DNA from: an uncultured bacterium
GTDB lineage: Bacteria > Lernaellota > Lernaellaia > Lernaellales > Lernaellaceae
Reading direction: 5' to 3'
DNA length: 17,352 nt
NCBI GenBank assembly: GCA_964534375.1
Contig: CAZHPN010000134.1
Span: 1-17,352, forward strand
Below, piece by piece: positions 3,102 to 17,352 of the stretch. The stretch's first letter is position 1. Each line of letters begins with the position of its first letter. The notes beneath the pieces are model-generated. The model had not been told where the DNA came from. It made no database searches and worked only from the letters and a program-made list of their open reading frames with translations. A program made the position numbers and the translations under genes.

Positions 3102-5372
3102 CTAACAGCCGCAGCCGCCGTGTTCCGCCGCAGCGGAGAGGTCGCTCGTTGCCGGGCCGGGGGAATCATCATCGTCGTCATCGTCATCGCTCGCGCTGGC
3201 GGGCAGGATGACGATTTTCACGGCGGGGCTGGTTTGCGGGCCGGCCGCGGCGAGGACGTACACGGTTCCTGGGGCGAGCGCGCGGAAACGGGCGCATTCG
3301 ACACGCGCCAGGGCCGGATTGCTCAAACGGAATTCGCTCCAACCCGAAACGTCGACGGCCGCGCCGGACGAATAGTGGCCGGCGGCCGCGAGCGCGATTT
3401 CCTCGCCGACCCGGATTTGCGTTTTCGCGGCGCGGACCGCGAGATCGGTCAACCGGGTGAGCAACGGTCGTTTCCAATTGAGTACCCAATAGCGATATTG
3501 CGTGAACGCCCGCCCGGGCAGGGCGTTGTCCAGAGAGATTTCCAGGGTTGCATGGCCCTTCGTCAACGCGGGCGGCAGATCGAACACCGCGTCGCGCCAC
3601 CGTTTGAACTTGTTGCGCTCGGGCGAACGCCAGACGCCGGCGGCGACGCCGTTCACGCTGACGTTGACGGCCTGCCGCCCTTGCCCCTGGTCGATCCGGC
3701 GCACGAGCCGCACGCCGTCGTTGAACGGGTTGACGCGCATGGTGAAGCGCGCCGCGCCGGTGGACCGGACGCCGGAATCGACGATGACCTCGGGCGGCCG
3801 CGTCCCTTCGTAGACGAACGAATTGGGTCCGACCGGCGCGTCGGCGGTTCCGTGGTAGCCGACGCGCTGCCGGTCCGCGGCGTCCGCGAGGCCGAACTCG
3901 TCGGCCGGTACGAGCGCGGCTTCGTTGACGCGATAGGCGAAAACGCACGAGCGATACGCCTCGTCGTTGTACTCGTCAAAGGCGTCGTGCTGGATGGCGA
4001 ACGTCGCGCCGTCGTAGAACTCGAGCGCATCCGCCGCCTGCACGCGGTACATGTCGTACGTGTCGCCGTCCGGGCCGAGGTAGTGCTCCGGCGCGCCGTG
4101 CGTGGGCAACGTGAACGGCCCGTGTTTGAAGTACCAGCCGGCGTTGTAGTAATCCTCCGTGCCCGTGCCCTGGATCGACGGCGAGCGCTGGCCGTCGGCC
4201 CAGAACGTCTCGTTGCCTTCGAGGAACCGCGGGCCGCTGCGCCCCGCCGCAACGTGCACCACGCCGACCATCTTGCCCTGACCGGTCAGCGAGGCGAACT
4301 GGTAATCGCGGCCGATGACCGTCGGGTCGGAAACCTGGTGCACGGTTTCGAATGTGCCGGCGTAATCGTCCGGCGGCCGCGACGTCCAGCCGACCTCGAC
4401 GTCGAGCGCGACGGGCGCGGCGGAATCGTTCGCCAGCGCCAACTGGACGCCGGTGAAGAACGGCATCGGGAAAAAGCTGTAGAGCACGCCGTCGCGCACG
4501 CCGAAGAGCAACGCCGACACGGTCGAATCCGGCCGGCTGGCGCCGAAAAACAAGCCGAGCGGAATGTCGACGGTGGGCGAGCCGCCGTCGAATGCGGCCG
4601 TCAAACGCACGCTCGTCAGCAACGCGGCGTCCAGGCTCGCGGGCTTGAACCGCAGGCTGGCGATTTGGCCGGCGCCGGTCTGCGAAAAAATCGGCGTCGT
4701 CGCCCCGGGGGGAATCTGGATTTGCGTTTGGCGAAGCGTCACCCCCGCCGCGTTTTTCGGATCGGTTCCCGCGGCCGCCGGGTCGTACAGCCGGCGCACG
4801 GTCGAGTAGTCTTCCGTGCCGGTGAACGACGTTACGGTCGTGTCGCCGCGATAGGCCTGCGCGGTGATGTTGTAGAAGAAGGTCCAGATGGTGGCGCCGA
4901 TAACGAGACGCTTCTGATAGCAAATGGGCACGTACGAAACGAAGCCGCCGCTCGAAGCGGCCTGGTCCCATACGAGCGGCGGCGTGAAGGGCGCAAGCTG
5001 CCCCGCGAAGAAATCGGGCAGGCGGTCGTTGACGATCGGCTCGGTCTGATCGTCCACATAAAAGCGCAGGTGCGAAAACGGAAACAATCCGGTGAACCAG
5101 ATGCGGTAGACGCAGCCCGGGCCCTCGGCGTCGAAGAGGATGTTCATGCCGTCTTGCCAGTAAAGCCGCGAGGAGAGGCCGGTGAAGCCGTCGTCGTTGA
5201 GGCCGGCGCGATCAAAACTTGAGGTCCCGAATGTCCGCACGCCGAGTTCGATCTGCGGCAACTGCCAAAGGTCGGTCATGCGCGCGACGCCGGTCAGCAG
5301 CTCGGCGCGCGCCGTGGCGGCGAAGAAAATCGACAATGCCAGCAAGGGCCACAGGCGCCCCATCCGCCCCAT
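3102..5372 (-). CDS. Secreted DUF2961 / glycoside hydrolase family 172-like protein with Ig-like domain and poly-Asp GGCGC tail
   Basis: GAGGTG RBS; signal peptide ending ARA; motifs SSFDR, GPGCVYRIW, FFPMPF, GQGKMVG, LEGNE and GTGTEDYYNAGWYF; Big_2-like segment near the C-terminus. Confidence 0.85.
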   Translation of the reverse strand: MGRMGRLWPLLALSIFFAATARAELLTGVARMTDLWQLPQIELGVRTFGTSSFDRAGLNDDGFTGLSSRLYWQDGMNILFDAEGPGCVYRIWFTGLFPFSHLRFYVDDQTEPIVNDRLPDFFAGQLAPFTPPLVWDQAASSGGFVSYVPICYQKRLVIGATIWTFFYNITAQAYRGDTTVTSFTGTEDYSTVRRLYDPAAAGTDPKNAAGVTLRQTQIQIPPGATTPIFSQTGAGQIASLRFKPASLDAALLTSVRLTAAFDGGSPTVDIPLGLFFGASRPDSTVSALLFGVRDGVLYSFFPMPFFTGVQLALANDSAAPVALDVEVGWTSRPPDDYAGTFETVHQVSDPTVIGRDYQFASLTGQGKMVGVVHVAAGRSGPRFLEGNETFWADGQRSPSIQGTGTEDYYNAGWYFKHGPFTLPTHGAPEHYLGPDGDTYDMYRVQAADALEFYDGATFAIQHDAFDEYNDEAYRSCVFAYRVNEAALVPADEFGLADAADRQRVGYHGTADAPVGPNSFVYEGTRPPEVIVDSGVRSTGAARFTMRVNPFNDGVRLVRRIDQGQGRQAVNVSVNGVAAGVWRSPERNKFKRWRDAVFDLPPALTKGHATLEISLDNALPGRAFTQYRYWVLNWKRPLLTRLTDLAVRAAKTQIRVGEEIALAAAGHYSSGAAVDVSGWSEFRLSNPALARVECARFRALAPGTVYVLAAAGPQTSPAVKIVILPASASDDDDDDDDSPGPATSDLSAAAEHGGCGC

Positions 5373-5999: not shown

Positions 6000-6509
6000 A
6001 TGTCTACTTCGGACTTGGTGAAGGAAGTTTTCAACGCGCTCGACGACGGCGACTACGACATCGTTTCCGCCAATCTCGACCGCGACTTCAAGTTCAGCGG
6101 GCCGACGCCGAATCCAATTGGAAAACAAGAATTCATCGCGTTTGAACGCGCTTTGCGCCGGGCCATGCCGGACCTCAAGCACAATTGCTCCGTATTGTGG
6201 GAAGGCAAAGAGAGCGAGGCGCGGGGCGAAGTCCGCGTCACCGGCACGCACCAGAACGTGCTGGATCTTTCCTACGTACCGAAAGTGGAGGCGACCAGCA
6301 AACGGGTCAAACTGCCGACAGAACGATGGACGGCCCGCGTGAAGAACGGCCGGATCGTTTCGTTTGCGGCTGAAGTCGGGCCGGACGGCGGCCTGCTCGG
6401 CATATTGAAGCAGATCGGGCGCGAGGACCTCGCCGATTGCCTGCGGACCAAAGGTGGTGACTGCCGGATCTACGAAGAAAGCAAGTCCATGGGGCTGCAC
6501 ACCTTCTGA
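6000..6509 (+). CDS. SnoaL-like / ester cyclase family protein, copy 2
   Basis: AAAGGA RBS; same length (169 aa) as 2489-2998 and about 53% identical by my manual alignment. Confidence 0.8.
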   Translation: MSTSDLVKEVFNALDDGDYDIVSANLDRDFKFSGPTPNPIGKQEFIAFERALRRAMPDLKHNCSVLWEGKESEARGEVRVTGTHQNVLDLSYVPKVEATSKRVKLPTERWTARVKNGRIVSFAAEVGPDGGLLGILKQIGREDLADCLRTKGGDCRIYEESKSMGLHTF

Positions 6510-7463: not shown

Positions 7464-7655
7464 GCGCCGGCGCCTCCCGTTGCGATTTGCCCAGAAAGCC
7501 GCCGTTTCGTCAACCGCCGGCGAGTTTCCCATTTCCACGCGCCGGGCCTCGTGCGTCCCGTGCGACTTCGCGTGCGGAGCCGCGGTCGGCGCGTCAGCGC
7601 TCCGGTTTTGTCGCGACGGCGCGTCGGCTGTTATTTGGGGGATGTTATTTTCGCC

Positions 7656-7684
7656 TTGACATCGCCGCCGCGTCGTGCGCTAAT
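7656..7684 (+). promoter_or_regulatory. Putative sigma70 promoter of the IHF/HU gene
   Basis: Perfect TTGACA at 7656-7661, 17-nt spacer ending in TGn, then a weak -10 GCTAAT. Confidence 0.45.
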
Positions 7685-7725
7685 TAGGCAAAAATAAAAG
7701 TAAACTTGCGGGGAGGGGGATGTGG

Positions 7726-8022
7726 ATGAACAAATCTGATTTGGCGGAAGCGTTATCGGCGCAGGCGGGAATCACGATCAAGAAAGCGTCGGAAGTCGTC
7801 GATTTGGTTTTTGACGAGATGGGCGGCGAACTCGCCAAGGGAAACCGCATCGAGATTCGCGGCTTCGGCAGTTTTGTCATCAAGGATTACGGAGCGTACG
7901 TCGGGCGCAACCCGAAGACCAAAGAGCAAATCGAAGTGCCGCCGAAGCGGCTGCCTTATTTTAAGGTCGGCAAGGAACTGCGTTCGCGCGTCGACAGAAA
8001 CGGCGCCAAACCAGGTTCTTGA
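7726..8022 (+). CDS. ihfB: Integration host factor beta-like / HU family DNA-binding protein
   Basis: MNKSDL...RIEIRGFGSF...GRNPKT...PYFKVGKELR; GGAGGGG RBS fits ATG 7726. Family is certain; the beta-subunit assignment less so. Confidence 0.85.
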   Translation: MNKSDLAEALSAQAGITIKKASEVVDLVFDEMGGELAKGNRIEIRGFGSFVIKDYGAYVGRNPKTKEQIEVPPKRLPYFKVGKELRSRVDRNGAKPGS

Positions 8023-8154
8023 GCAAAATTTAGACCGCGTCCGGCCTTGCAACAAACCCCGCGTTTCGTCAAAGTGTGTGCCGTGTTTTTCTCGGCGCTT
8101 GGCGGCGGCGCAACGCGGCGCGCGTCCGTCTGCCGGCCAGGAAAGTGAACGGCG

Positions 8155-9327
8155 ATGAATATTCACGAATATCAAGCGAAAGAGCTCTTTCTCGCTTACG
8201 GCGTGCCGACGCCGCGCTTTCGCGTGATTGGCAACCCGTGGGAGGCGTACGAAGCCGCGCAGGAACTCGGCGGCGAGACCTTCGTCGTGAAAGCGCAGAT
8301 CCATGCGGGCGGGCGCGGCAAGGCCGGCGGCGTGAAAGTGGCGCACGGCCTCAACCAGGTGCACCAGCTCGCGATGGAAATGTCCGGCAAGACGTTGGTC
8401 ACGCCGCAAACCGGCCCGGCCGGCAAGAAGGTGCGCAAGATCCTGATCGGGCAGGCGGTCGATATTGCCCGCGAGTATTACCTGGCGCTGCTGGTGGATC
8501 GCAGCGCGCGCGCGGTGGCGATCATGGCCAGCCGCGAAGGCGGCGTGGAAATCGAAACCGTGGCGAGCAAGAATCCCGGCGCGATTTTCGTGCAGCGCGT
8601 CGATCCTATGGCTGGCCTCGCGTCCTTTGCCGCCCGCAACGTGGCGTACGCGTTGGGACTGGGCGGCCCCCAGGTCAAACAATGCGCGGAGATGGTCCGC
8701 AACCTGCACCGCTTGTTCCAGGAAAACCACTGTTCGCTGCTCGAAATCAATCCGCTCGCCGTCGACGCACAGGGCGCGCTCTGGGCCGCCGACGCCAAGA
8801 TCGCGATCGACGACAACGCCCTGACGAGCCGTCCGGATCTGCGGCGCCTGCGCGACTACGATGAGGAAGAGCCGCTGGAAATTCAGGCGCGGCGTTACGG
8901 CGTCGATTACGTCAAACTCGACGGCCGGATCGGCTGTCTGGTGAACGGCGCAGGTCTGGCGATGGCGACGATGGACCAGATCAAGCTGGCCGGCGGCGAA
9001 CCCGCCAATTTCCTGGACATCAAAGGCGGCGCCAACAAGCAGAACGTCATCAACGCGTTCAAACTGCTCACGGCGGACGAGCGCGTCCGCGTCGTGCTGA
9101 TTAATATCTTCGGGGGCATCGTGCGCTGCGACATGGTGGCGGCCGGTATTCTTTCGGCGTTGCGCGAAATCGAGGTCAAGCTGCCGATCGTCATCCGGCT
9201 GGAAGGCACGAACGTCGAAGAGGGCCGCAAACTGCTGGCGGAATCGCCGTATTCGTTTGTTCTCGCCGACGGTCTGGCCGACGCCGCGCGCAAAGCCGTG
9301 AGCGCCCTCGCGGGGGAAACAGCGTGA
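8155..9327 (+). CDS. sucC: Succinyl-CoA synthetase beta subunit
   Basis: [57 protein letters not shown]. Confidence 0.97.
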
Positions 9328-10202
9328 GCATCTTCGCCGACGAAAACACGCGCGTCGTGGTGCAGGGCATTACCGGAAAAGAGGGCAGCTTCCACGCGCG
9401 GCAATGCCTCGCTTACGGAACCAAGATTGTCGCCGGCGTGACGCCCGGCAAAGGCGGCCAGAAGACGGAAGACGTGCCGGTGTTCAATTGCGTCCGGGAA
9501 GCCGTCGCGGTCGCCGACGCCAACACCAGCCTGATCTTCGTGCCGCCGGCGGGCGCGGCCGACGCGATTCTCGAAGCGGCCGACGCCGGCATCGCCCTAG
9601 CCGTGGTCATCACCGACGGCGTGCCGACGCTCGACATGATTCGCGTGTTGCGGCAAATAGCCGGCCGGCCGATTCGAGTGCTGGGGCCGAATTGCCCGGG
9701 CCTCATATCGCCGGGCAAGACCAAAGTCGGCATCATGCCCGCGGCGATTCACCTGCCCGGGCGCGTCGGCGTCATCAGCCGCAGCGGCACGCTGACGTAC
9801 GAAGTGGTTTACCAACTTACGACCCTCGGCGTGGGCCAATCGACCTGCATCGGCGTCGGCGGCGATCCCGTCGTCGGCACGGATTACCTCGATTGCTTGC
9901 GCGCTTTCGCCGCCGATCCCGAAACTGACGCGATCTTGCTGATCGGTGAAATCGGCGGCGACGCGGAGGAACGCGCCGCGGAATTCATCAGGGAACATGT
10001 CCGAAAACCGGTGGTCTCATTCATTGCGGGCCTGTCGGCGCCGGCCGGCAAACGCATGGGCCATGCCGGCGCGATCATCGCGGGCGGCAAAGGCACGGCG
10101 CGCGCCAAATTGGCCGCGTTGGCGGAGGCCGGCGTGCGCGTGGTCGAAGACGCGTCGCGCATCGGGCAGACCGTGAAAGAAACGTTGGCCAACCGGGTTT
10201 GA
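9324..10202 (+). CDS. sucD: Succinyl-CoA synthetase alpha subunit
   Basis: [34 protein letters not shown] and phospho-His motif RMGHAGA; GTGA overlap with sucC. Confidence 0.97.
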
Positions 10203-10245
10203 CGGCCCGGGCCGGCGTGCGGCAGCGAAGAAAGGACGGCAGGTT

Positions 10246-11703
10246 TTGCGACGGTTGATTTTCATTGTCGGGGCGTTGGCCGCCGTCGTGGCGGCGGCGG
10301 TCGCCGCGGCGTGGGCGGCGAATTGGGAATTGGCGTTCAAAGAGCGGGTGACCTTGGCGGCGCTGGACATTGCGCCCCCCGGTCTGCGGGCGAGATTGCC
10401 GCGCGACCCGGCGGTCGTACACGCGGCGTTGCTGGAAGCGGCGACGTTGACGCGCAACGGCAAACGGGATCCGGAAGAGCATCTGGCGCAGGTGCGGCAG
10501 ATGCTGAAAAAACCGGACGCCCCGCCCGAGCGGCTGCTGGCTGAGTTGGCGGCGCTGGCCACCTATTTCATGGACAAAACGGCGCCGGAAGCGGTGCGCT
10601 CGTTTTTCGTCGCCGTCGACGGCAGCGACGAAATCGGCGCCGATCGCTTTGACGGCTATTACTACGTGGCGCATTTCGCCCCGTTCATCGAGGTGGTCAA
10701 GTCGGTGGTCGGTCCGACGCGCGATTCGCTCGGCAAAGAAGCGGGCGGCGCGGGAGCGACCGGCTCGACGAAGACCGCGGACAGCGTGGCGCAGATGTTC
10801 GATCTCTACGTCAATGCGACGGTCGATCTGTGGGCCTCGCTGGCCAAGGACGCCGAGATCCCGTTTGGCGAAATGCCGGCGGCCGGCCTGCGTTCCGCGC
10901 CGAAATCCGGCAGCCTGGTGAACTCCGGCGGCATTTTCCGGCCGACGATCGGGTTGGACACCGGGGTGTTGACGCGGCAGATGTTCGCCGAAGGGCAGAA
11001 GTCGGGCGCGCTGACCAAGCTCGACGTCGGGGCCGCCGGCGGCGCCAAGAAGACGTCGGACGAATTCGTGTTCGACGACGTGAGCGTGTCGGGCGACGAG
11101 GCGAAGCGCAAGGCGTCGCAGTTGGCGAATTCCGACGTGACGGTCGATTCGCGCGGGATGGACCGGATGTCGGCGCTCGACGATGAAACGCGGGCGGCGC
11201 TCAATAAAATGGGCATCGACGTGGGCGCGCAGCGCGGCGAATTCAAAGGGACGCGCGGCGGCGTGCAACCGGGCCAGGTCGTGAAGGCCGGCGATATCGA
11301 AATCAAGTTGAACAACCTCTCGACGGTGGAAATCGCGGGGCGCGACAAACGGCAGGTCTACATGCAGTTGCCGGACGTGGCCGGTTCGACGGCCGGCTCG
11401 ACCGGGGTGTTGAATCAGAAAGCCGTCGTCGCGGTCATCGGCGCCAACATCGGGGCGTTCAAGAATTGCTTCGAACGCCGGCTGCGCGACATTCCGGACC
11501 TTGCCGGCCGGGTGTTCGTGCAATTCACCATCGGCGTCGACGGCGCGGTAGGCGACGTCAAGTTGCTGGAAAACACGACCAATGACCGGCCATTCGCCGA
11601 CTGCCTGGTGAGCCACGTGGAACGACTGCGCTTCCCGCCGCCGAAGGGCGGCGAGGTGACCTTCGTCTTCCCGTTCATCTTCGAGCAAGCGTACGCGATG
11701 TAA
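10246..11703 (+). CDS. Exported protein with C-terminal AgmX/PglI-type (TonB-C-like) domain
   Basis: TTG start after AAGGA; signal peptide; C-terminal [26 protein letters not shown]...CL......[17 protein letters not shown], as in myxobacterial GltG/GltJ-type domains. Confidence 0.8.
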
Positions 11704-11725
11704 CGGCGCGAACACGCGCCGTCTT
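11703..11725 (+). terminator. Hairpin directly after the stop codon, possible terminator
   Basis: acggcgcg-aaca-cgcgccgt 8-bp stem with a weak U tail. Confidence 0.35.
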
Positions 11726-12015: not shown

Positions 12016-12744
12016 CTACCCGGCGCCGCCTTTGCCGGCGGGCTTTTTCTTGACGTTCTTGGTGTCTTTGACCTCGCCCGCGAGTTTGGCGAGAATCGCT
12101 TCGTCGGAGGGAGAAAGCTTCTCCAGGCAGATGGCGTTGCGCGTGTCGTCCTTGTCGTCGATCAGCAAGATCGCCAAATACAGATCGTGAGTGAGATAGA
12201 CGCCGCGAATCTGCACCGGGCTGTCAGGGTTCGTGTACTTGGCGAAGAAGCGTTCCATCAGTTTCGGATGATGGAAGAAATTGCTCCAGGGCGCCCCGGT
12301 TTCTGTCGTCGATTTCAGGGCCTCGCCGAAAGCGCCGATCTCGATTCGTTTCTTGACGCTCTTGGTCGGTTCGCCCATGTGCAGGATCTGTTCGAACGGG
12401 TAGCCGACTTTGGAGAAATTCAGCAATTGTTCACCGGTGATGTGTTCTTCCCACCACGATACAAAACCGTCCTGGTCCAGATCGCGCGGGTCGAAAGCGG
12501 GCGGTGTGGCGGATTCGGCGGCGCCGCCGGCGGCGGAGGCAGGCGCGCCGATGCGCCGATACGGCATCCCGGCGACGGCCAGAATCAGCGACATCGCCAA
12601 CAGGCCAATGAGGATCACATCTTGTATGTTGTCGAATCCCTTCCGGTGCTCCTCGCACAGATACAACGGTGCGATTGGAAATACGTGAAAACGTTTGACG
12701 GCTTTGTATTTCGCACTCGCCCTGCATTTGGCGCACTTGATCAT
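12016..12744 (-). CDS. Hypothetical bitopic membrane protein (CxxC...CxxH knuckle, TM helix, EF-hand-like loop)
   Basis: GGAGGGG RBS before ATG 12744; MIKCAKC...LCEEH; TM VILIGLLAMSLILAVAG; loop DLDQDGFVSWWE. The longer called N-terminus merely runs through a repeat. Confidence 0.75.
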   Translation of the reverse strand: MIKCAKCRASAKYKAVKRFHVFPIAPLYLCEEHRKGFDNIQDVILIGLLAMSLILAVAGMPYRRIGAPASAAGGAAESATPPAFDPRDLDQDGFVSWWEEHITGEQLLNFSKVGYPFEQILHMGEPTKSVKKRIEIGAFGEALKSTTETGAPWSNFFHHPKLMERFFAKYTNPDSPVQIRGVYLTHDLYLAILLIDDKDDTRNAICLEKLSPSDEAILAKLAGEVKDTKNVKKKPAGKGGAG

Positions 12745-12801
12745 TCCTGGCCCCCCTCCGAACGCCATATTATCTAACAAGTTTCGGTCGCAGACGCAAG
12801 A

Positions 12802-13008
12802 GAACGAGAATAGTGAACAAGGAAAAAGGAAAAAGGAAAAAGTACGAAAAACCGGCGACCACGGTTTGGAGAGAGCTTCATGCACACGCGCGATGCCCTG
12901 ATTCGACGCTATTTTCCGAAGCCCATCGGCGGCAATAACGCGTTTTGCTTGAGTTTCCAGACGCCGGGTGGGCCCTTGCACTTTTTCCTTCTTCCTTGTT
13001 CATTCCTC
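12802..13008. repeat. MITE-like element with 7-nt-period inverted arms (AAAAAGG/AACAAGG)
   Basis: Left arm tgaacaaggaaaaaggaaaaaggaaaaagt (12814-12843); right arm actttttccttcttccttgttca (12980-13002); about 135 nt of spacer. Confidence 0.75.
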
Positions 13009-13037
13009 TTGACACGCTCCAATCGGTCGCCTACACT
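13009..13037 (+). promoter_or_regulatory. Sigma70 promoter of the RHH-sat operon
   Basis: TTGACA (13009-13014), 17 nt, TACACT (13032-13037). Confidence 0.8.
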
Positions 13038-13074: not shown

Positions 13075-13308
13075 ATGGACAAAGTGACGATCAAAATCCC
13101 GCGGCAACTCTATGAGAAGATTCAACTTCTGATTGACGATTCGGGATTTTCGAGTCCGACCGAGTTCATCGTCTACGTTCTTCGCGATTTGATCGGCGGA
13201 CAACTCGCCGGGCGGCAAGCGGCAAAAAAAGAAGACAAATCTCAAGAACTTACGACCGAGGAAGTGGCGGCGATCAAGCAACGTCTGCGCAGCCTCGGGT
13301 ATCTGTAG
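13075..13308 (+). CDS. CopG/ribbon-helix-helix transcriptional regulator with RLxxLGYL tail (77 aa)
   Basis: GGAG RBS; beta-strand KVTIKIP, helix, GFSSPTEFIVYVLRD; tail EEVAAIKQRLRSLGYL. Confidence 0.85.
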   Translation: MDKVTIKIPRQLYEKIQLLIDDSGFSSPTEFIVYVLRDLIGGQLAGRQAAKKEDKSQELTTEEVAAIKQRLRSLGYL

Positions 13309-13329
13309 ATTAGAAAGGACCGGCGCAAC

Positions 13330-14487
13330 ATGATTAAGGCCCACGGTGGACGATTGGTGGATCGCTTTGTTAAGGGAGACATCCGCGAGGCTCTGCTCGA
13401 AAAAGCGGCCCAAATGCCGAAAATGACGCTCAACGAGCGCGAAATCGCCGACGTCGAGATGCTTTCGTGCGGCGCGATGAGCCCGCTCGAAGGCTTCATG
13501 ACCCGCGACGACTACAAGAGCGTTGTGCACGATATGCGCCTGGCGTCGGGCCTGGTGTGGCCATTGCCGATCACCCTCGCGCCCAAGGCCGGCGACGATC
13601 GCAAATTCCAAATCGGGCAGCAGCTCGCGCTCGTGGACGACGGCGGCCGCATCGTGGCAGTCATGGATGTCGAAGACGTTTACGACGTCGACCACGCCGA
13701 AGAGGCCGCGAAATGTTACCGCACGACCGACCCGGCGCACCCGAGCGTCGCGTATCTGCGCAATTACGGCACGACGTATCTGGGCGGGCCGATCACCGCG
13801 CTGAATAAGGTCGAGCACGACGACTTCAACGGATACCGCCTCGAGCCGAAAGAAACGCGCGTGCTGTTCAAGACCAAAGGCTGGAAAACGATCGTCGCCT
13901 TCCAGACGCGCAACCCGATCCACCGCGCGCACGAGTACCTGCAAAAATGCGCGCTCGAACAGGTCGATGCGCTGCTGATCCATCCGCTGATGGGCGCGAC
14001 GAAAAAAGGCGACATCCCTGGCGACGTGCGCATGGCGTGCTACAAGGCGCTCGTCGAAAATTACTACTGCCCCGACCGCATCGCGGTCAGCATTTTCCCC
14101 GCGGCGATGCGCTACGGCGGCCCGCGCGAGGCGATCTTCCACGCGCTGGTCCGCAAAAACTACGGCTGCACGCACTTCATCGTCGGCCGCGATCACGCCG
14201 GCGTCGGCACCTACTACGGCTCGTACGACGCGCAAAACATCTTCGCCGAATTTTCGCGCGAAGAGATCGACATCGCGCCGATGATGTTCGAAAACTCGTT
14301 CTTCTGCAAAAAGTGCGGCAACATGGCGAGCGCCAAGACCTGCCCGCACGGCGCGGAAGATCGTGTGAATCTCTCGGGCACGAAGGTCCGCGAAATGCTG
14401 GCGCGCGGCGAGCGGCCGCCGGCCGAGTTTACGCGGGCCGAGGTCGCGGACGTTTTGATGAAGTATTACCAGAGCGAAAACGCCTGA
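13330..14487 (+). CDS. sat: Sulfate adenylyltransferase (Sat-type ATP sulfurylase)
   Basis: HGGRL, SPLEGFM, FQTRNPIHRAHE, YGGPREA, VGRDHAG, Zn site CKKC...CPH, SGTKVR. Confidence 0.97.
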   Translation: MIKAHGGRLVDRFVKGDIREALLEKAAQMPKMTLNEREIADVEMLSCGAMSPLEGFMTRDDYKSVVHDMRLASGLVWPLPITLAPKAGDDRKFQIGQQLALVDDGGRIVAVMDVEDVYDVDHAEEAAKCYRTTDPAHPSVAYLRNYGTTYLGGPITALNKVEHDDFNGYRLEPKETRVLFKTKGWKTIVAFQTRNPIHRAHEYLQKCALEQVDALLIHPLMGATKKGDIPGDVRMACYKALVENYYCPDRIAVSIFPAAMRYGGPREAIFHALVRKNYGCTHFIVGRDHAGVGTYYGSYDAQNIFAEFSREEIDIAPMMFENSFFCKKCGNMASAKTCPHGAEDRVNLSGTKVREMLARGERPPAEFTRAEVADVLMKYYQSENA

Positions 14488-14504
14488 CGAACGAGGAGGG
14501 CGCC

Positions 14505-15884
14505 GTGAAAAAGATGATCGTCATCGGCTTGGATTGCATGGAACCGAGCCTCGTGTTCGAGCAGTTTCGCGACCTGATGCCGAATGTCCGCCGGCTGACC
14601 GAAGCCGGCGTGCACGGCAAAATGCGCAGCACGGAGCCGCCGATCACCGTGCCGGCCTGGACCTCCATGATGACCAGCAAAGACCCGGGCCAGCTCGGCG
14701 TGTACGGCTTCCGCAACCGCGCCGATTACTCCTACAAGGGTCTGTATTTCGCCAACGACGATTACATCCATGAAAAACGCGTCTGGAACTATCTGGCGCG
14801 CCGGCGCGTCAACACCTTCGCGCTCAGCGTGCCGCAGACGTATCCGCCCAAGCCGATGCGCGGCACGCTCGTCGCGGATTTCCTGACGCCCGACAAAAAC
14901 GTGCCGTGGACATATCCGATCGAGGCGGCGCACGAGATCGATTTTCTGGCCGACGGCGACTACATCATCGACGTCAAGGATTTCCGCACCGACAACAAAG
15001 ATTGGCTGATCGAGCAGATTTACAAAATGACCGAGCGCCGCTTCAAGGTGTTCCGCGAATTCGTGCGGCGCGGCGAACATGAATTCTGCATGATGGTCGA
15101 GATGGGCGTCGACCGGATGCACCACGCGTTTTGGCGGCATCACGACGTGAAGCACCGGCTGCACGAGCCGAACAACAAATATCAATATGTCATTCGCGAT
15201 TATTACAAATACCTCGACGCCCGCATCGGCGAGCTGCTCGAGGTCGTCGACGCCGACACGGCGGTGATGATCGTTTCCGATCACGGCGCCAAGGGCATGG
15301 TCGGGGCGATCTGCGTCAACGAATGGTTGATGCAAAAGGGCTACCTCGCCCTCAAAGAACCGCTGAAGGGCCCGGGCAAGCTGAAGATGGACAACATCGA
15401 CTGGTCGCGCACCAAGGCCTGGGGCGAGGGCGGCTACTACAGCCGCATTTTCTTCAACGTCAAAGGCCGGGAGCCGGAAGGCATCATCGCTCCGGCCGAC
15501 TACCCAGCCTTCCGCGACCGCATCCAAAAGGATTTCGAAGAGATCGCCGACGAAAATGGCAAGAACATCGGCACGGTGGTGCTGCGGCCGGAGAACATCT
15601 ACCGCGAAGTGAAGAACGTGGCGCCGGATCTGATCGTTTATTTCGGCAACCTGGACTGGCGCAGCGCAGGGCAGATTGGCACGGGCAAGATCCATATTTT
15701 CGAGAACGACACCGGCCCCGACGACGCCAACCACGCCGCGTACGGCATCTTCGCGCTGCGGCTGCCCGGCGGGCAAAAGGCGCAGGCGCTGCCGGAATAC
15801 TCGATCTACGACGTGGCGCCGACGATCCTGAATTATTTCGGCGTCGAAATTCCGGCCGATTTCATCGGCAAGAGCGTGTTATAG
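14505..15884 (+). CDS. Alkaline phosphatase superfamily protein (nucleotide pyrophosphatase/phosphodiesterase-like)
   Basis: GAGGAGG RBS + GTG start; IGLDC, STEPPITVPAW (Thr nucleophile position), DRMHH, SDHG, DDANH, DVAPTIL; no signal peptide. Confidence 0.9.
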   Translation: MKKMIVIGLDCMEPSLVFEQFRDLMPNVRRLTEAGVHGKMRSTEPPITVPAWTSMMTSKDPGQLGVYGFRNRADYSYKGLYFANDDYIHEKRVWNYLARRRVNTFALSVPQTYPPKPMRGTLVADFLTPDKNVPWTYPIEAAHEIDFLADGDYIIDVKDFRTDNKDWLIEQIYKMTERRFKVFREFVRRGEHEFCMMVEMGVDRMHHAFWRHHDVKHRLHEPNNKYQYVIRDYYKYLDARIGELLEVVDADTAVMIVSDHGAKGMVGAICVNEWLMQKGYLALKEPLKGPGKLKMDNIDWSRTKAWGEGGYYSRIFFNVKGREPEGIIAPADYPAFRDRIQKDFEEIADENGKNIGTVVLRPENIYREVKNVAPDLIVYFGNLDWRSAGQIGTGKIHIFENDTGPDDANHAAYGIFALRLPGGQKAQALPEYSIYDVAPTILNYFGVEIPADFIGKSVL

Positions 15885-15895
15885 AATGGGAACAT

Positions 15896-16030
15896 TAAAC
15901 ACAGAGGGCACAGAGAATTGCACGGAGGACACAGAGGCGGCCGGAACGCGTTGCGCGCGTTCGCGCGACGCGTTCCGGCCGCGCTCTTCTCTGTGCTCTC
16001 TGTGTCTTCCCTCTGTGCTCTCTGTGTTTA
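15896..16030. repeat. Long palindromic element with CACAGAG-family arms and a 21-bp inner GC stem
   Basis: Outer arms taaacacagagggcacagag...ctctgtgctctctgtgttta; inner stem gcggccggaacgcgttgcgcg/cgcgcgacgcgttccggccgc (15937-15982). Confidence 0.9.
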
Positions 16031-16058
16031 AAATTCCATACACAAAAAGGGACGCAAT

Positions 16059-16661
16059 ATGAAAAAGGGTTTCACGATTTGGTTCACGGGCCTCTCCGGC
16101 TCCGGCAAGTCGACGCTCGCCACGATGGTCGAAGAGACGTTGCTCGAGCGCGGCCTGAACGTCGAAGTGCTCGACGGCGACGTGGTGCGCACCAACCTGA
16201 GCAAAGGGCTGGGTTTCTCGAAAGAGGATCGCGACATCAACATCCGGCGCATCGGCTTCGTGTGCGAATTGCTGACGCGCAACGGCGTGGTCGCCATCGC
16301 CGCGGCGATCAGCCCGTACAAGGAAATCCGCAACGAGAACCGCAAGCGCGTCGGCCGCTTCGTCGAAGTGTACTGCGAGTGCCCGATCCCGGTGCTCGCC
16401 GAACGCGACATCAAGGGCCTGTACAAGAAAGCGCTGGCCGGCGAGATCAAGAATTTCACCGGCGTGTCCGACCCCTACGAGCCGCCGGACCACCCGGAGA
16501 TCGTCTGCCGCACCGACCAGGAGTCGACGCGGCAATCGCACGACCGGATCGTCCGGACGCTCGAACTCATGGGCTACGTCCCGGCGGCCGAAGGCGCGGA
16601 CTACAGCCCCGAAGAAGAAGAAAAAATCAAGAAACGCCTGAAAGACCTCGGGTATCTCTAA
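16059..16661 (+). CDS. cysC: Adenylyl-sulfate (APS) kinase with C-terminal RLxxLGYL extension
   Basis: [46 protein letters not shown]; tail [19 protein letters not shown]. Confidence 0.97.
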
Positions 16662-16703
16662 AAGACCATCAGAGCGATTAGCAGATGCCGGTTCAGGCGA
16701 CCG

Positions 16704-16732
16704 GGGCGGCATGACGGCCGCCCTCTCTATTT
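16704..16732 (+). terminator. Possible terminator after cysC
   Basis: gggcggc-atgacg-gccgccc stem followed by tctctattt. Confidence 0.45.
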
Positions 16733-16985: not shown

Positions 16986-17065
16986 CGAACCCGGGTGGGA
17001 GACTTATTCCCGACTAAAAGGCTTGTTCTAATAGCGGTAACGAAGTAACTTTACCAGGAGGTTCA

Positions 17066-17352
17066 ATGATGAAGAACATGCGTTTGGCAATCCTAGTGCT
17101 CGCGGTCTTCGCGAGCCTGTTGGCGTTTGCGTGCGCCAGCACCTCTAGCAGCAGCAGCGCCGCCGCGCCGGATGACGACGACGACACGTCGCCGACCGTC
17201 GACGACGACAGCTCGCCGACCGTCGACGACGACGACGACAACGACGACGACTCCTCGCCGCCGGTTGACGACGACAACGACACTGTGGTCGACGACGACG
17301 ACGACAACGACGACAACGACGACAACGACGACAACGACGACAACGACGACAA
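17066..17352 (+). CDS. Asp-rich lipoprotein, N-terminal part (runs off the window; absent from the ORF track)
   Basis: AGGAGG RBS; MMKNMRLAILVLAVFASLLAFA-C lipobox; then Ser-rich segment, DDDDDTSPTVDDDSSPTV... and (DDN)n. Start is 17066 or 17069. Confidence 0.85.
   Translation, partial: MMKNMRLAILVLAVFASLLAFACASTSSSSSAAAPDDDDDTSPTVDDDSSPTVDDDDDNDDDSSPPVDDDNDTVVDDDDDNDDNDDNDDNDDNDD
17171..17352 (+). repeat. Coding low-complexity repeats (DDDxSPxV units and GACGACAAC 9-mers)
   Basis: Directly visible; a perfect gacgacaac array runs to the window end. Confidence 0.9.

Follow-up and report, generated by a model that had tools for sequence, protein, structure and literature searches.

A conserved alkaline phosphatase-fold protein encoded between ATP sulfurylase and APS kinase as a candidate PAPS-consuming sulfuryl transferase

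The contig CAZHPN010000134.1 (C134; 17,352 bases, analyzed over its whole length and hereafter referred to as the window) belongs to a metagenome-assembled genome (MAG) of an uncultured Lernaellota bacterium (GCA_964534375.1; 6.3 Mb in 381 contigs, 94% complete). Near its downstream end, four plus-strand genes in close succession (13075-16661) encode a putative ribbon-helix-helix (RHH) regulator, the ATP sulfurylase Sat, an alkaline phosphatase (AlkP)-superfamily protein herein designated AlkP1, and the adenosine 5'-phosphosulfate (APS) kinase CysC. In this study, we show that RHH-sat-AlkP1-cysC is a real module conserved over many phyla, and that the 3'-phosphoadenosine 5'-phosphosulfate (PAPS) which it produces is destined for sulfation rather than sulfur assimilation. 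The evidence from synteny, co-occurrence, gene fusion, genome content, and neighborhood makes a functional tie of AlkP1 to PAPS synthesis very likely. As for the reaction itself, we propose, with a probability of roughly 40%, that AlkP1 is a PAPS-consuming sulfuryl transferase operating via Thr48.

Conserved linkage of AlkP1 to sulfate activation genes

The original prediction for this DNA had named Sat and CysC as the enzymes making PAPS, and both identities were confirmed with Pfam and NCBIfam models above their cut-offs. Sat (13330..14487, +; 385 aa) is a homo-oligomeric-type ATP sulfurylase that matched PF01747 (2e-99) and PUA_2 (4e-53) and passed the NCBIfam models NF003166 (549 bits, cut-off 387) and TIGR00339 (466 bits, cut-off 323). 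CysC (16059..16661, +; 200 aa) matched PF01583 (3e-61) and NF002059 (278 bits, cut-off 244), and has the P-loop GLSGSGKST as well as a C-terminal extension of 25 residues lying outside the model. Between them is located the gene for AlkP1, which extends from 14505 (GTG) or 14514 (ATG) to 15884 on the plus strand, the GTG start being preceded by GAGGAGG 5 nt upstream.

The gene neighborhoods of relatives were compared by taking one genome per species and scoring features within 5 kb of AlkP1 in the best 80 of at least 592 loci, which span Acidobacteriota, Eisenbacteria, Poribacteria, Desulfobacterota, Binatia, Chloroflexota, Actinomycetota, Planctomycetota, Verrucomicrobiota, Myxococcota, and unnamed lineages. 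A very strong enrichment of AlkP1 homologs beside sat and cysC, well above chance, was found, so that the original prediction passed the refuting condition set for it (no such enrichment): CysC occurred in 37 of the 80 loci (immediately 3' and on the same strand in 33) and Sat in 26, together with an upstream RHH homolog in 17 and a further PF01663 paralog in 30. CysC was nearby in 25 of the 28 loci at 55% or higher identity to AlkP1 (one of the misses having just 91 bases of flank), in 10 of 19 at 52-55%, and in 2 of 33 below 52%. The cultured Singulisphaera sp. Ch08 has a homolog of 52% identity (L074) that does not adjoin cysC. Eleven loci had the arrangement RHH-AlkP1-CysC or AlkP1-CysC with Sat not within 5 kb. 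Where AlkP1 did not adjoin cysC, an APS kinase was encoded elsewhere in all 43 genomes, to be read against a high control background of 11/14.

The same association was seen within the phylum of the window, for which 17 species genomes were compared; these are related rather than independent genomes, and no statistic was computed. The cysC gene was adjacent to AlkP1 in 9/9 carriers, and the eight genomes without AlkP1 had a full APS kinase in one case, a weak or partial match in two, and none in five. One genus was split, with AlkP1 and cysC both present in genome G082 and both absent from G083, indicating that the pair moves as a unit.

A further link was provided by gene fusions. There were 276 long AlkP1 homologs at E ≤ 1e-30, and among the matches listed, 120 of 120 were composed of PUA_2, ATP-sulfurylase, and Phosphodiest domains, in that order. 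These Sat::AlkP1 fusions, 826-911 aa in length, align with the whole of AlkP1 at 49-55% identity and, where named, are called ATP sulfurylase or sulfate adenylyltransferase (two from Anaerolineae); all the AlkP1 motifs were retained in the three fusion sequences read (3/3). All these observations show that the AlkP1 subfamily has been gained and lost jointly with APS kinase and that, in some lineages, it has become fused to ATP sulfurylase. Separately, a candidate fusion of AlkP1 with the kinase in locus L041 was rejected, the long open frame lying in a reading frame different from that of AlkP1.

Sequence and predicted fold of AlkP1

AlkP1 matched PF01663 (Phosphodiest) at 2.9e-43 (149.2 bits, cut-off 23) over profile positions 2-342 of 342. 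The features attributed to it in the original prediction, i.e., a Thr at the nucleophile position (PPITVPAW) and metal-ligand motifs, were all present in the translation as IGLDC, DRMHH, SDHG, and GPDDANH. The CxPxR motif was absent; with PF00884 scoring 18.7 bits (cut-off 25) and PPITVPAW occupying the nucleophile position in place of C/S-x-P-x-R, AlkP1 is not a formylglycine sulfatase. It showed no match to the P-loop-like sulfotransferase families PF00685, PF03567, PF13469, and PF17784 at E ≤ 0.01, its fold being NPP-like (nucleotide pyrophosphatase/phosphodiesterase), and it contains neither an Inositol_P nor a PHP domain, which places it outside the CysQ and PHP 3'-phosphoadenosine 5'-phosphate (PAP) phosphatases. 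The predicted cytoplasmic location also held, in that neither a signal peptide nor a hydrophobic N-terminus was found; the protein begins directly with strand 1 (residues 3-9 in the model) and the metal-ligand Asp10, and therefore has no export signal.

A database search retrieved at least 8000 homologs at E ≤ 0.001. The best 120, all bearing PF01663, were 57-88% identical to AlkP1 and were named only as "alkaline phosphatase family protein" or "predicted AlkP superfamily phosphohydrolase/phosphomutase". In an alignment of 26 homologs from several candidate phyla, the mean column identity was 71%, and D10, C11, T48 (in STxPPITVPAWT), R70-N71-R72, D203, H207, D259, H260, D406-D407, and H410 were invariant in 26/26, with the motif D406-D407-x-N409-H410 being conserved. 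Of this catalytic set, T48, H207, and D406 were re-examined in the 80 loci and were invariant in all of them (80/80). AlkP1 is a member of an uncharacterised, highly conserved COG3379 subfamily. In the open-access literature searched, nothing was found on this family or on any AlkP-fold sulfotransferase.

The AlphaFold2 model of AlkP1 was of high confidence (predicted local distance difference test [pLDDT] 89.1; predicted template modeling [pTM] score 0.91). No match in the Protein Data Bank (PDB) was obtained with its sequence profile at E ≤ 0.01; Foldseek placed the model nearest to the Xanthomonas NPP, the phosphonoacetate hydrolase PhnA, and ENPP1/3/6, at 12-16% identity and template modeling (TM) scores of 0.55-0.69. 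The best structural matches were the Xanthomonas NPP (PDB 7n1s, 2gsn), ENPP1, and ENPP3, with 7n1s_B giving a Foldseek E-value of 1.8e-16 and TM scores of 0.58 (query) and 0.68 (target). The Thr nucleophile and the six Asp/His ligands of a two-metal site are present when the NPP residues are mapped via motif order and fold. Like the NPPs, AlkP1 has the PF01663 domain, a Thr nucleophile in P-x-T-x-P, and an identical order of the Asp/His ligands. It differs from them in its low identity, its cytoplasmic location (NPPs being secreted proteins), some 80 additional residues, the invariant C11, the R70-N71-R72 motif, the partner tails described below, and its setting in PAPS synthesis. PhnA resembles AlkP1 in being a cytoplasmic enzyme with a Thr nucleophile. 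Its fold is equally near (PDB 1ei6, 3t02; TM 0.60-0.68), but no phosphonate genes lie near AlkP1 and the NCBIfam PhnA model was unmatched. Taken together, the sequence and the model indicate that AlkP1 is an apparently intact, cytoplasmic, NPP-like two-metal enzyme with Thr48 as the putative nucleophile, representing a distant and uncharacterised branch.

A C-terminal tail shared by the partners of AlkP1

In the window, CysC and the RHH protein have the common ending …EE…IKxRLxxLGYL, at 16587..16658 (+) and 13234..13305 (+; …LTTEEVAAIKQRLRSLGYL), respectively. This tail follows the motif [FY][ST]xEEExx[IV][KR]x[RK]Lxx[LM]GY[LIF], ending within 3 residues of the C-terminus, and the G and Y of LGY were invariant in 28/28 aligned tails. 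No earlier description of the motif was encountered, although no literature search was aimed at it. It was present on 31 of the 35 AlkP1-adjacent CysC proteins with a readable C-terminus and on all 17 RHH proteins upstream of AlkP1 (17/17), as compared with 3 of 20 CysC proteins not beside AlkP1, two of which adjoin another AlkP paralog. AlkP1 itself bears the tail in four loci, in three of which (L019, L047, and L070) the adjacent CysC is tailless, the fourth (L009) having no CysC in its flank. In Binatia, a frame at or overlapping the gene of a CobW-like GTPase after AlkP1 ends in the tail, the GTPase being annotated in the tailless L028 alone.

In the genome of the window, only four open reading frames (ORFs) end in the tail: those of RHH and CysC, and those of two sulfatase-family proteins (L090:2753-4399, +; L093:3473-4870, -) whose nucleophile motifs are of the Thr/Ser type. 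A profile of the 28 tails matched 25 of the 33 genomes lacking a tail in the vicinity of AlkP1, with no tail at E ≤ 0.01 in the other 8, and the tail matches sampled in other genomes were, in 10/10 cases, C-termini of AlkP-superfamily paralogs.

When AlkP1 was co-folded with residues 158-200 of CysC, three runs scored 0.60, 0.80, and 0.85 (median 0.80), as compared with 0.01 for the best of three controls. In the benchmark, a score of 0.80 was reached by 116/157 solved complexes and 2/215 mismatched pairs, values that are approximate here since custom alignments were used. The runs shared at least 62% of contacts, with a partner pLDDT of at least 58. In the predicted complex, the tail runs along AlkP1 residues 82-86, 126-133, and 156-161 into the catalytic cleft, where its last five residues contact residues 47-49 (including Thr48), 68-70, 204, 207, 309-311, 386, and 406, and the penultimate Tyr199 of CysC contacts Thr48, F69, H207, and Y311.

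Fate of PAPS and gene neighborhoods

The absence of a PAPS/APS reductase, a sulfite reductase, and a P-loop sulfotransferase from the operon, as noted in the original prediction, was borne out by a Pfam scan of the 25 ORFs of the window. In the genome as a whole, no NIR_SIR sulfite reductase, no CysH equivalog, no Sulfotransfer_1, and no Sulfotransfer_2 (the last searched without a positive control) was found; a P-loop sulfotransferase is missing from the operon but not from the genome, where one Sulfotransfer_3 gene was detected on contig C82. With neither NIR_SIR nor a CysH equivalog, assimilatory reduction is not encoded, and PAPS must therefore serve sulfation. Two Inositol_P proteins fell below every equivalog cut-off, so that no CysQ was established in this genome. 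A lone PAPS_reduct-family ORF (C137:3058-3765; L086) was rejected as CysH, giving only weak CysD/LarE matches; it is nearer to such PP-loop ATPases than to CysH, and it neighbors a glycosyltransferase family 4 (GT4) gene, a hexapeptide acyltransferase gene, and a PIG-L deacetylase gene.

Among the 37 genomes with adjacent AlkP1 and cysC, NIR_SIR was present in 13 and Sulfotransfer_3 in 19. Of the 18 genomes without Sulfotransfer_3, 17 also lacked Sulfotransfer_1 and 18 lacked Sulfotransfer_4 (searched without a positive control), and 13 of the 37 lacked NIR_SIR and Sulfotransfer_1, _3, and _4 altogether.

The neighborhoods of the 37 cysC-linked loci were scanned over 127 of 144 further gene calls of at least 140 aa, plus representatives of recurring clusters, a codon-position G+C filter being used in the clustering. 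Of 150 ORFs prepared, the 23 left out were mostly antisense over AlkP1 or cysC or from clusters already annotated, together with L036:7691-10639:- (983 aa, over the Sat match of that locus). No P-loop sulfotransferase was found among the scanned neighbors. The recurring ones included glycan and lipid enzymes (GT4, GT2, UDP-GlcNAc 2-epimerase, NAD epimerases, and a PlsC-like acyltransferase), membrane proteins (a Wzx-type flippase, LPG_synthase_TM, a DASS sulfate/anion symporter, and a TauE-like exporter), NUDIX and SurE proteins, and one to three extra PF01663 paralogs. The commonest order was (RHH) sat, AlkP1, cysC, AlkP2 (about 435 aa), AlkP3 (about 700 aa), and another PF01663 gene at the locus edge. 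In those loci of Binatia, Gaiellaceae, and Poribacteria that lack both sat and cysC, the homolog was found amid Wzx, Wzy-like, UDP-glucose dehydrogenase, DegT, and sulfatase-like genes.

A gene 3' of cysC in four acidobacterial loci encodes a PHP protein, and the best NCBIfam match of this protein was 3',5'-nucleoside bisphosphate phosphatase (NF041577; 219-225 bits). The co-occurrence of this PAP phosphatase-like gene implies PAP as a product there. In locus L023, a single frame (7619-10012; 798 aa) joins the PHP domain to an AlkP2-type PF01663 domain, the two being separate neighbors in L017, L048, and L075.

The AlkP3 paralogs L024:8523-10721, L073:4823-6748, L010:8496-10634, and L083:6979-8844 have a common N-terminus. 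There, a signal-like segment and a conserved AYIGPGAG motif are followed by a single transmembrane helix and then a run of basic residues, which suggests that AlkP3 is membrane-anchored with its catalytic domain on the cytoplasmic face. The AlkP paralogs of the window's own genome are dispersed over contigs C52, C225, C325, and C244. One of them, the AlkP4-type paralog C325:52-2334 (L084), has a twin-arginine signal and a lipobox (…RRGFLQGVAGAAALAAGC…); at least one paralog of the family would therefore act outside the cytoplasm, where PAPS is absent.

Proposed function of AlkP1

As a working mechanism, we propose that the CysC tail docks along the invariant, Arg-rich cleft of AlkP1 with its penultimate Tyr near Thr48 and the metal ligands, and that it would thereby keep the PAPS producer attached to AlkP1. 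The metal-activated Thr48 would then accept the sulfuryl group from PAPS with release of PAP, and the sulfo-enzyme would hand it to a glycan, glycolipid, lipid carrier, or other acceptor of the cell envelope. The RHH regulator, having the same tail, could compete for the cleft, and the AlkP paralogs often encoded downstream may belong to the same pathway. This transferase function is favored because the tightest partner of AlkP1 is the PAPS producer CysC, because the loci carry envelope-glycoconjugate genes and no canonical sulfotransferase, because no other PAPS consumer is seen in one-third of the genomes carrying it, because a PAP phosphatase-like gene co-occurs and implies PAP formation, and because there is a genetic precedent in the superfamily, Haloferax Agl7.

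Several known systems bear comparison. In nodPQ-nodH and raxPQ-raxST, a second or dedicated copy of the PAPS-synthesis genes is clustered with a dedicated P-loop sulfotransferase. The present module is like them in setting sulfate-activation genes beside an enzyme that would spend PAPS, and unlike them in that AlkP1 has the AlkP fold. EptA and LtaS transfer via a covalent Thr intermediate to an envelope acceptor, and are membrane-anchored, periplasmic PF00884 enzymes using lipid donors; AlkP1, in contrast, is soluble, cytoplasmic, and not of PF00884. The CysQ and PHP PAP phosphatases (NF041577) can adjoin PAPS-synthesis genes, but AlkP1 is in neither family. Haloferax volcanii Agl7 (HVO_2046), annotated as an N-acetylgalactosamine-4-sulfatase, is described as a protein whose deletion removes sulfate from a dolichol-phosphate-linked hexose (PMC3892788). 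Like AlkP1, it belongs to the alkaline phosphatase superfamily and is the only precedent found on the sulfate-adding side. It differs in being archaeal, in having a sulfatase-family rather than a PF01663 annotation, and in the evidence being genetic only. According to a 2024 review, the PAPS-binding P-loop-like fold is the hallmark of polysaccharide sulfotransferases, with which that review deals, and PAPS-independent sulfotransferases form a separate class, the term "alkaline phosphatase" appearing nowhere in that text (PMC11625862).

Several points weigh against a sulfuryl transferase. NPP-type sites usually attack phosphorus rather than sulfur. The identity of AlkP1 across phyla, about 60%, would suit a universal small-molecule substrate over variable glycan acceptors, and its fusion partner is Sat, not CysC, which would be in keeping with action on a product of Sat (pyrophosphate [PPi] or APS). 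Canonical PAPS consumers are often present, as indicated by Sulfotransfer_3 in more than half of the cysC-linked genomes and by the gene on C82, which adjoins an ASST-like gene and an epimerase gene; absences in MAGs are soft evidence, the completeness of the 37 genomes not being stated. The PHP match lies under its cut-off of 400 with RNase RNM a close second. As for the tail, the co-fold score is the model's own confidence and supports tail binding; the cleft residues that it contacts are invariant whether or not a locus has tails, so that peptides might dock there by default, and a tail filling the cleft could inhibit rather than tether.

An extended version of the transferase proposal, in which AlkP1 founds a new sulfotransferase class (AlkP fold, two metals, sulfo-Thr48) whose cleft is gated by a portable latch helix and which doubles as a pathway sensor, appears doubtful to us. 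The latch would serve channeling when borne by CysC and transcriptional feedback when borne by the RHH repressor, and a lipid-carrier acceptor, if used, might provide a sulfate donor outside the cytoplasm for the exported AlkP- and sulfatase-like paralogs.

Alternative functions

The alternative that survives best, though we regard it as unlikely, is that AlkP1 is a dedicated inorganic pyrophosphatase of a Sat-AlkP1-CysC complex, in which PPi hydrolysis pulls the very unfavorable ATP sulfurylase reaction forward. Alkaline phosphatases hydrolyze PPi, and fusions of APS kinase, ATP sulfurylase, and pyrophosphatase reportedly exist in some eukaryotes. The Sat::AlkP1 fusions, with domains in the same order as the genes, would fit such a role, as would the very high conservation expected for a universal small substrate, a cleft rich in invariant Arg residues (R70, R72, R161, R204, and R386), and the failure to find a family-I soluble pyrophosphatase in the window's own genome. 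That genome nevertheless encodes an H+-pyrophosphatase. Moreover, CysC is a tighter partner than Sat (37/80 vs. 26/80, with the 11 loci lacking Sat within 5 kb), homologs of about 50% identity reside in polysaccharide loci without sat or cysC, and the tail on the RHH protein and the AlkP paralogs is left unexplained.

It is also improbable that AlkP1 is a phosphodiesterase or phosphotransferase of envelope glycoconjugates, performing no PAPS chemistry and being clustered with these genes since another enzyme sulfates the same polymer. PF01663 includes the glycosylphosphatidylinositol (GPI) ethanolamine-phosphate transferases, the neighbors comprise polysaccharide and lipid genes, and Sulfotransfer_3 in 19 of the 37 genomes could perform the sulfation. 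Such a function, however, explains neither the Sat fusions nor the predicted placement of the CysC tail in the cleft, nor the joint presence and absence with cysC in one phylum, nor the 13 of 37 genomes without a recognized sulfotransferase.

A role in turning over the nucleotides of the pathway, either as a PAP 3'-phosphatase replacing CysQ or as an NPP-like hydrolase of the phosphosulfate bond in PAPS or APS that limits toxic PAPS and PAP, seems to us rather improbable as well. NPPs cleave phosphoanhydrides, PAPS included, and the NPP-like fold and residues of AlkP1, the tie of the module to PAPS synthesis, and the sub-cut-off Inositol_P proteins, which leave a true CysQ unestablished in this genome, are all in line with it. 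On the other hand, the separate PHP protein, nearest to PAP phosphatases, directly follows cysC in four loci and is once fused to AlkP2; tethering a PAPS destroyer to Sat and CysC would be futile; and homologs in polysaccharide loci are ill-suited to nucleotide salvage.

Least probable of all is that the tails are substrates (e.g., with the penultimate Tyr O-sulfated or de-modified) or pseudo-substrate latches through which AlkP1, sensing a metabolite, controls CysC and the RHH repressor, since the contacts predicted for Tyr199 with Thr48, F69, H207, and Y311, the invariance of the LGY Gly and Tyr in all 28 tails, the tail on a transcription regulator, and the tails in cis on AlkP paralogs (10/10 sampled elsewhere, and two sulfatase-family proteins in the own genome) are countered by a catalytic set and cleft that stay invariant in the 33 loci without a nearby tail gene (8 of these 33 genomes being tail-free at E ≤ 0.01), by the oddity that, in four loci, the enzyme would carry its own substrate tail, and by our knowing of no protein modification for this tail motif, at which no literature search was aimed.

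Gene layout and other features of the contig

The gaps between RHH, sat, AlkP1, and cysC are 21, 17, and 174 bases, respectively, and the contig stops 690 bases past cysC, so that the downstream end of the operon is out of view. The tail-bearing RHH (CopG-like) putative regulator (13075..13308, +; 77 aa) scored 17.6 bits against RHH_1 (cut-off 20.5) and 8e-5 against the CdrS model, which is likewise under its cut-off. Upstream of its gene, a weak sigma-70-like promoter match, TTGACA-17-TACACT, was located at 13009..13037 (+) by a consensus scan that gave 1 site vs. 1.5 expected. A terminator-like hairpin lies 3' of cysC at 16703..16724 (+), from a scan giving 6 sites vs. 7.1 expected.

The spacer between AlkP1 and cysC is occupied by a palindromic dispersed repeat of 146 bases (15890..16035, unstranded), containing a 20-bp G+C-rich hairpin (15937-15982) bracketed by inverted CACAGAG-type repeats. 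Some 20 other contigs of the genome carry incomplete copies (84-100% identical), and the element looks like a repetitive extragenic palindromic (REP) sequence or a miniature inverted-repeat transposable element (MITE). Being also terminator-like by score, it might attenuate read-through into cysC. One metatranscriptome contained contigs on AlkP1 (15590-15809) and cysC (16230-16470), a weak hint that both are transcribed, the contigs giving neither transcript ends nor level. Wetland metagenomes contain this DNA, sharing 0.97, 0.87, and 0.59 of sampled words; the top one may be the source sample.

The remainder of the contig carries unrelated genes, namely sucCD, an HU protein gene, a staphylococcal-nuclease-like gene, a DUF2961 gene, two SnoaL-like genes, and several Pfam-less ORFs, and no Rfam match was obtained across the whole contig at gathering thresholds. 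The two SnoaL-like genes (2489-2998 and 6000-6509, both + and 169 aa) flank the DUF2961 gene (3102-5372, -) and may be a local duplication. Upstream of the module, the minus-strand ORFs 10075-11715 (546 aa) and 12016-12981 (321 aa) had no Pfam or NCBIfam match, and the former is a candidate only, the coding strand at 10.1-11.7 kb being ambiguous. The contig ends within a lipoprotein gene (17066-17350, +) with the lipobox LAFAC and Asp-rich repeats (DDDDDTSPTVDDD…), which are probably the reason for the assembly break; a Ser-rich frame (17014-17352, -) lies opposite.

Implications

To our knowledge, a single PAPS-binding fold is common to all known PAPS-dependent sulfotransferases, and the genome surveys that we know of seek sulfation with those sulfotransferase Pfam models alone. 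AlkP1 is a conserved enzyme of another fold that travels with APS kinase in many, mostly uncultured, phyla, and in 13 of the 37 carrier genomes nothing else recognizable is encoded to spend PAPS. If AlkP1 is indeed the consumer, sulfation of envelope polymers by microbes in wetlands, soils, and sediments would be far wider than annotated, and a covalent sulfo-Thr at a two-metal site would constitute a new catalytic route. Even if AlkP1 is a helper, such as a pyrophosphatase, a three-enzyme complex for PAPS synthesis would be new, as would a tail that links a catalytic cleft, a kinase, and a repressor.

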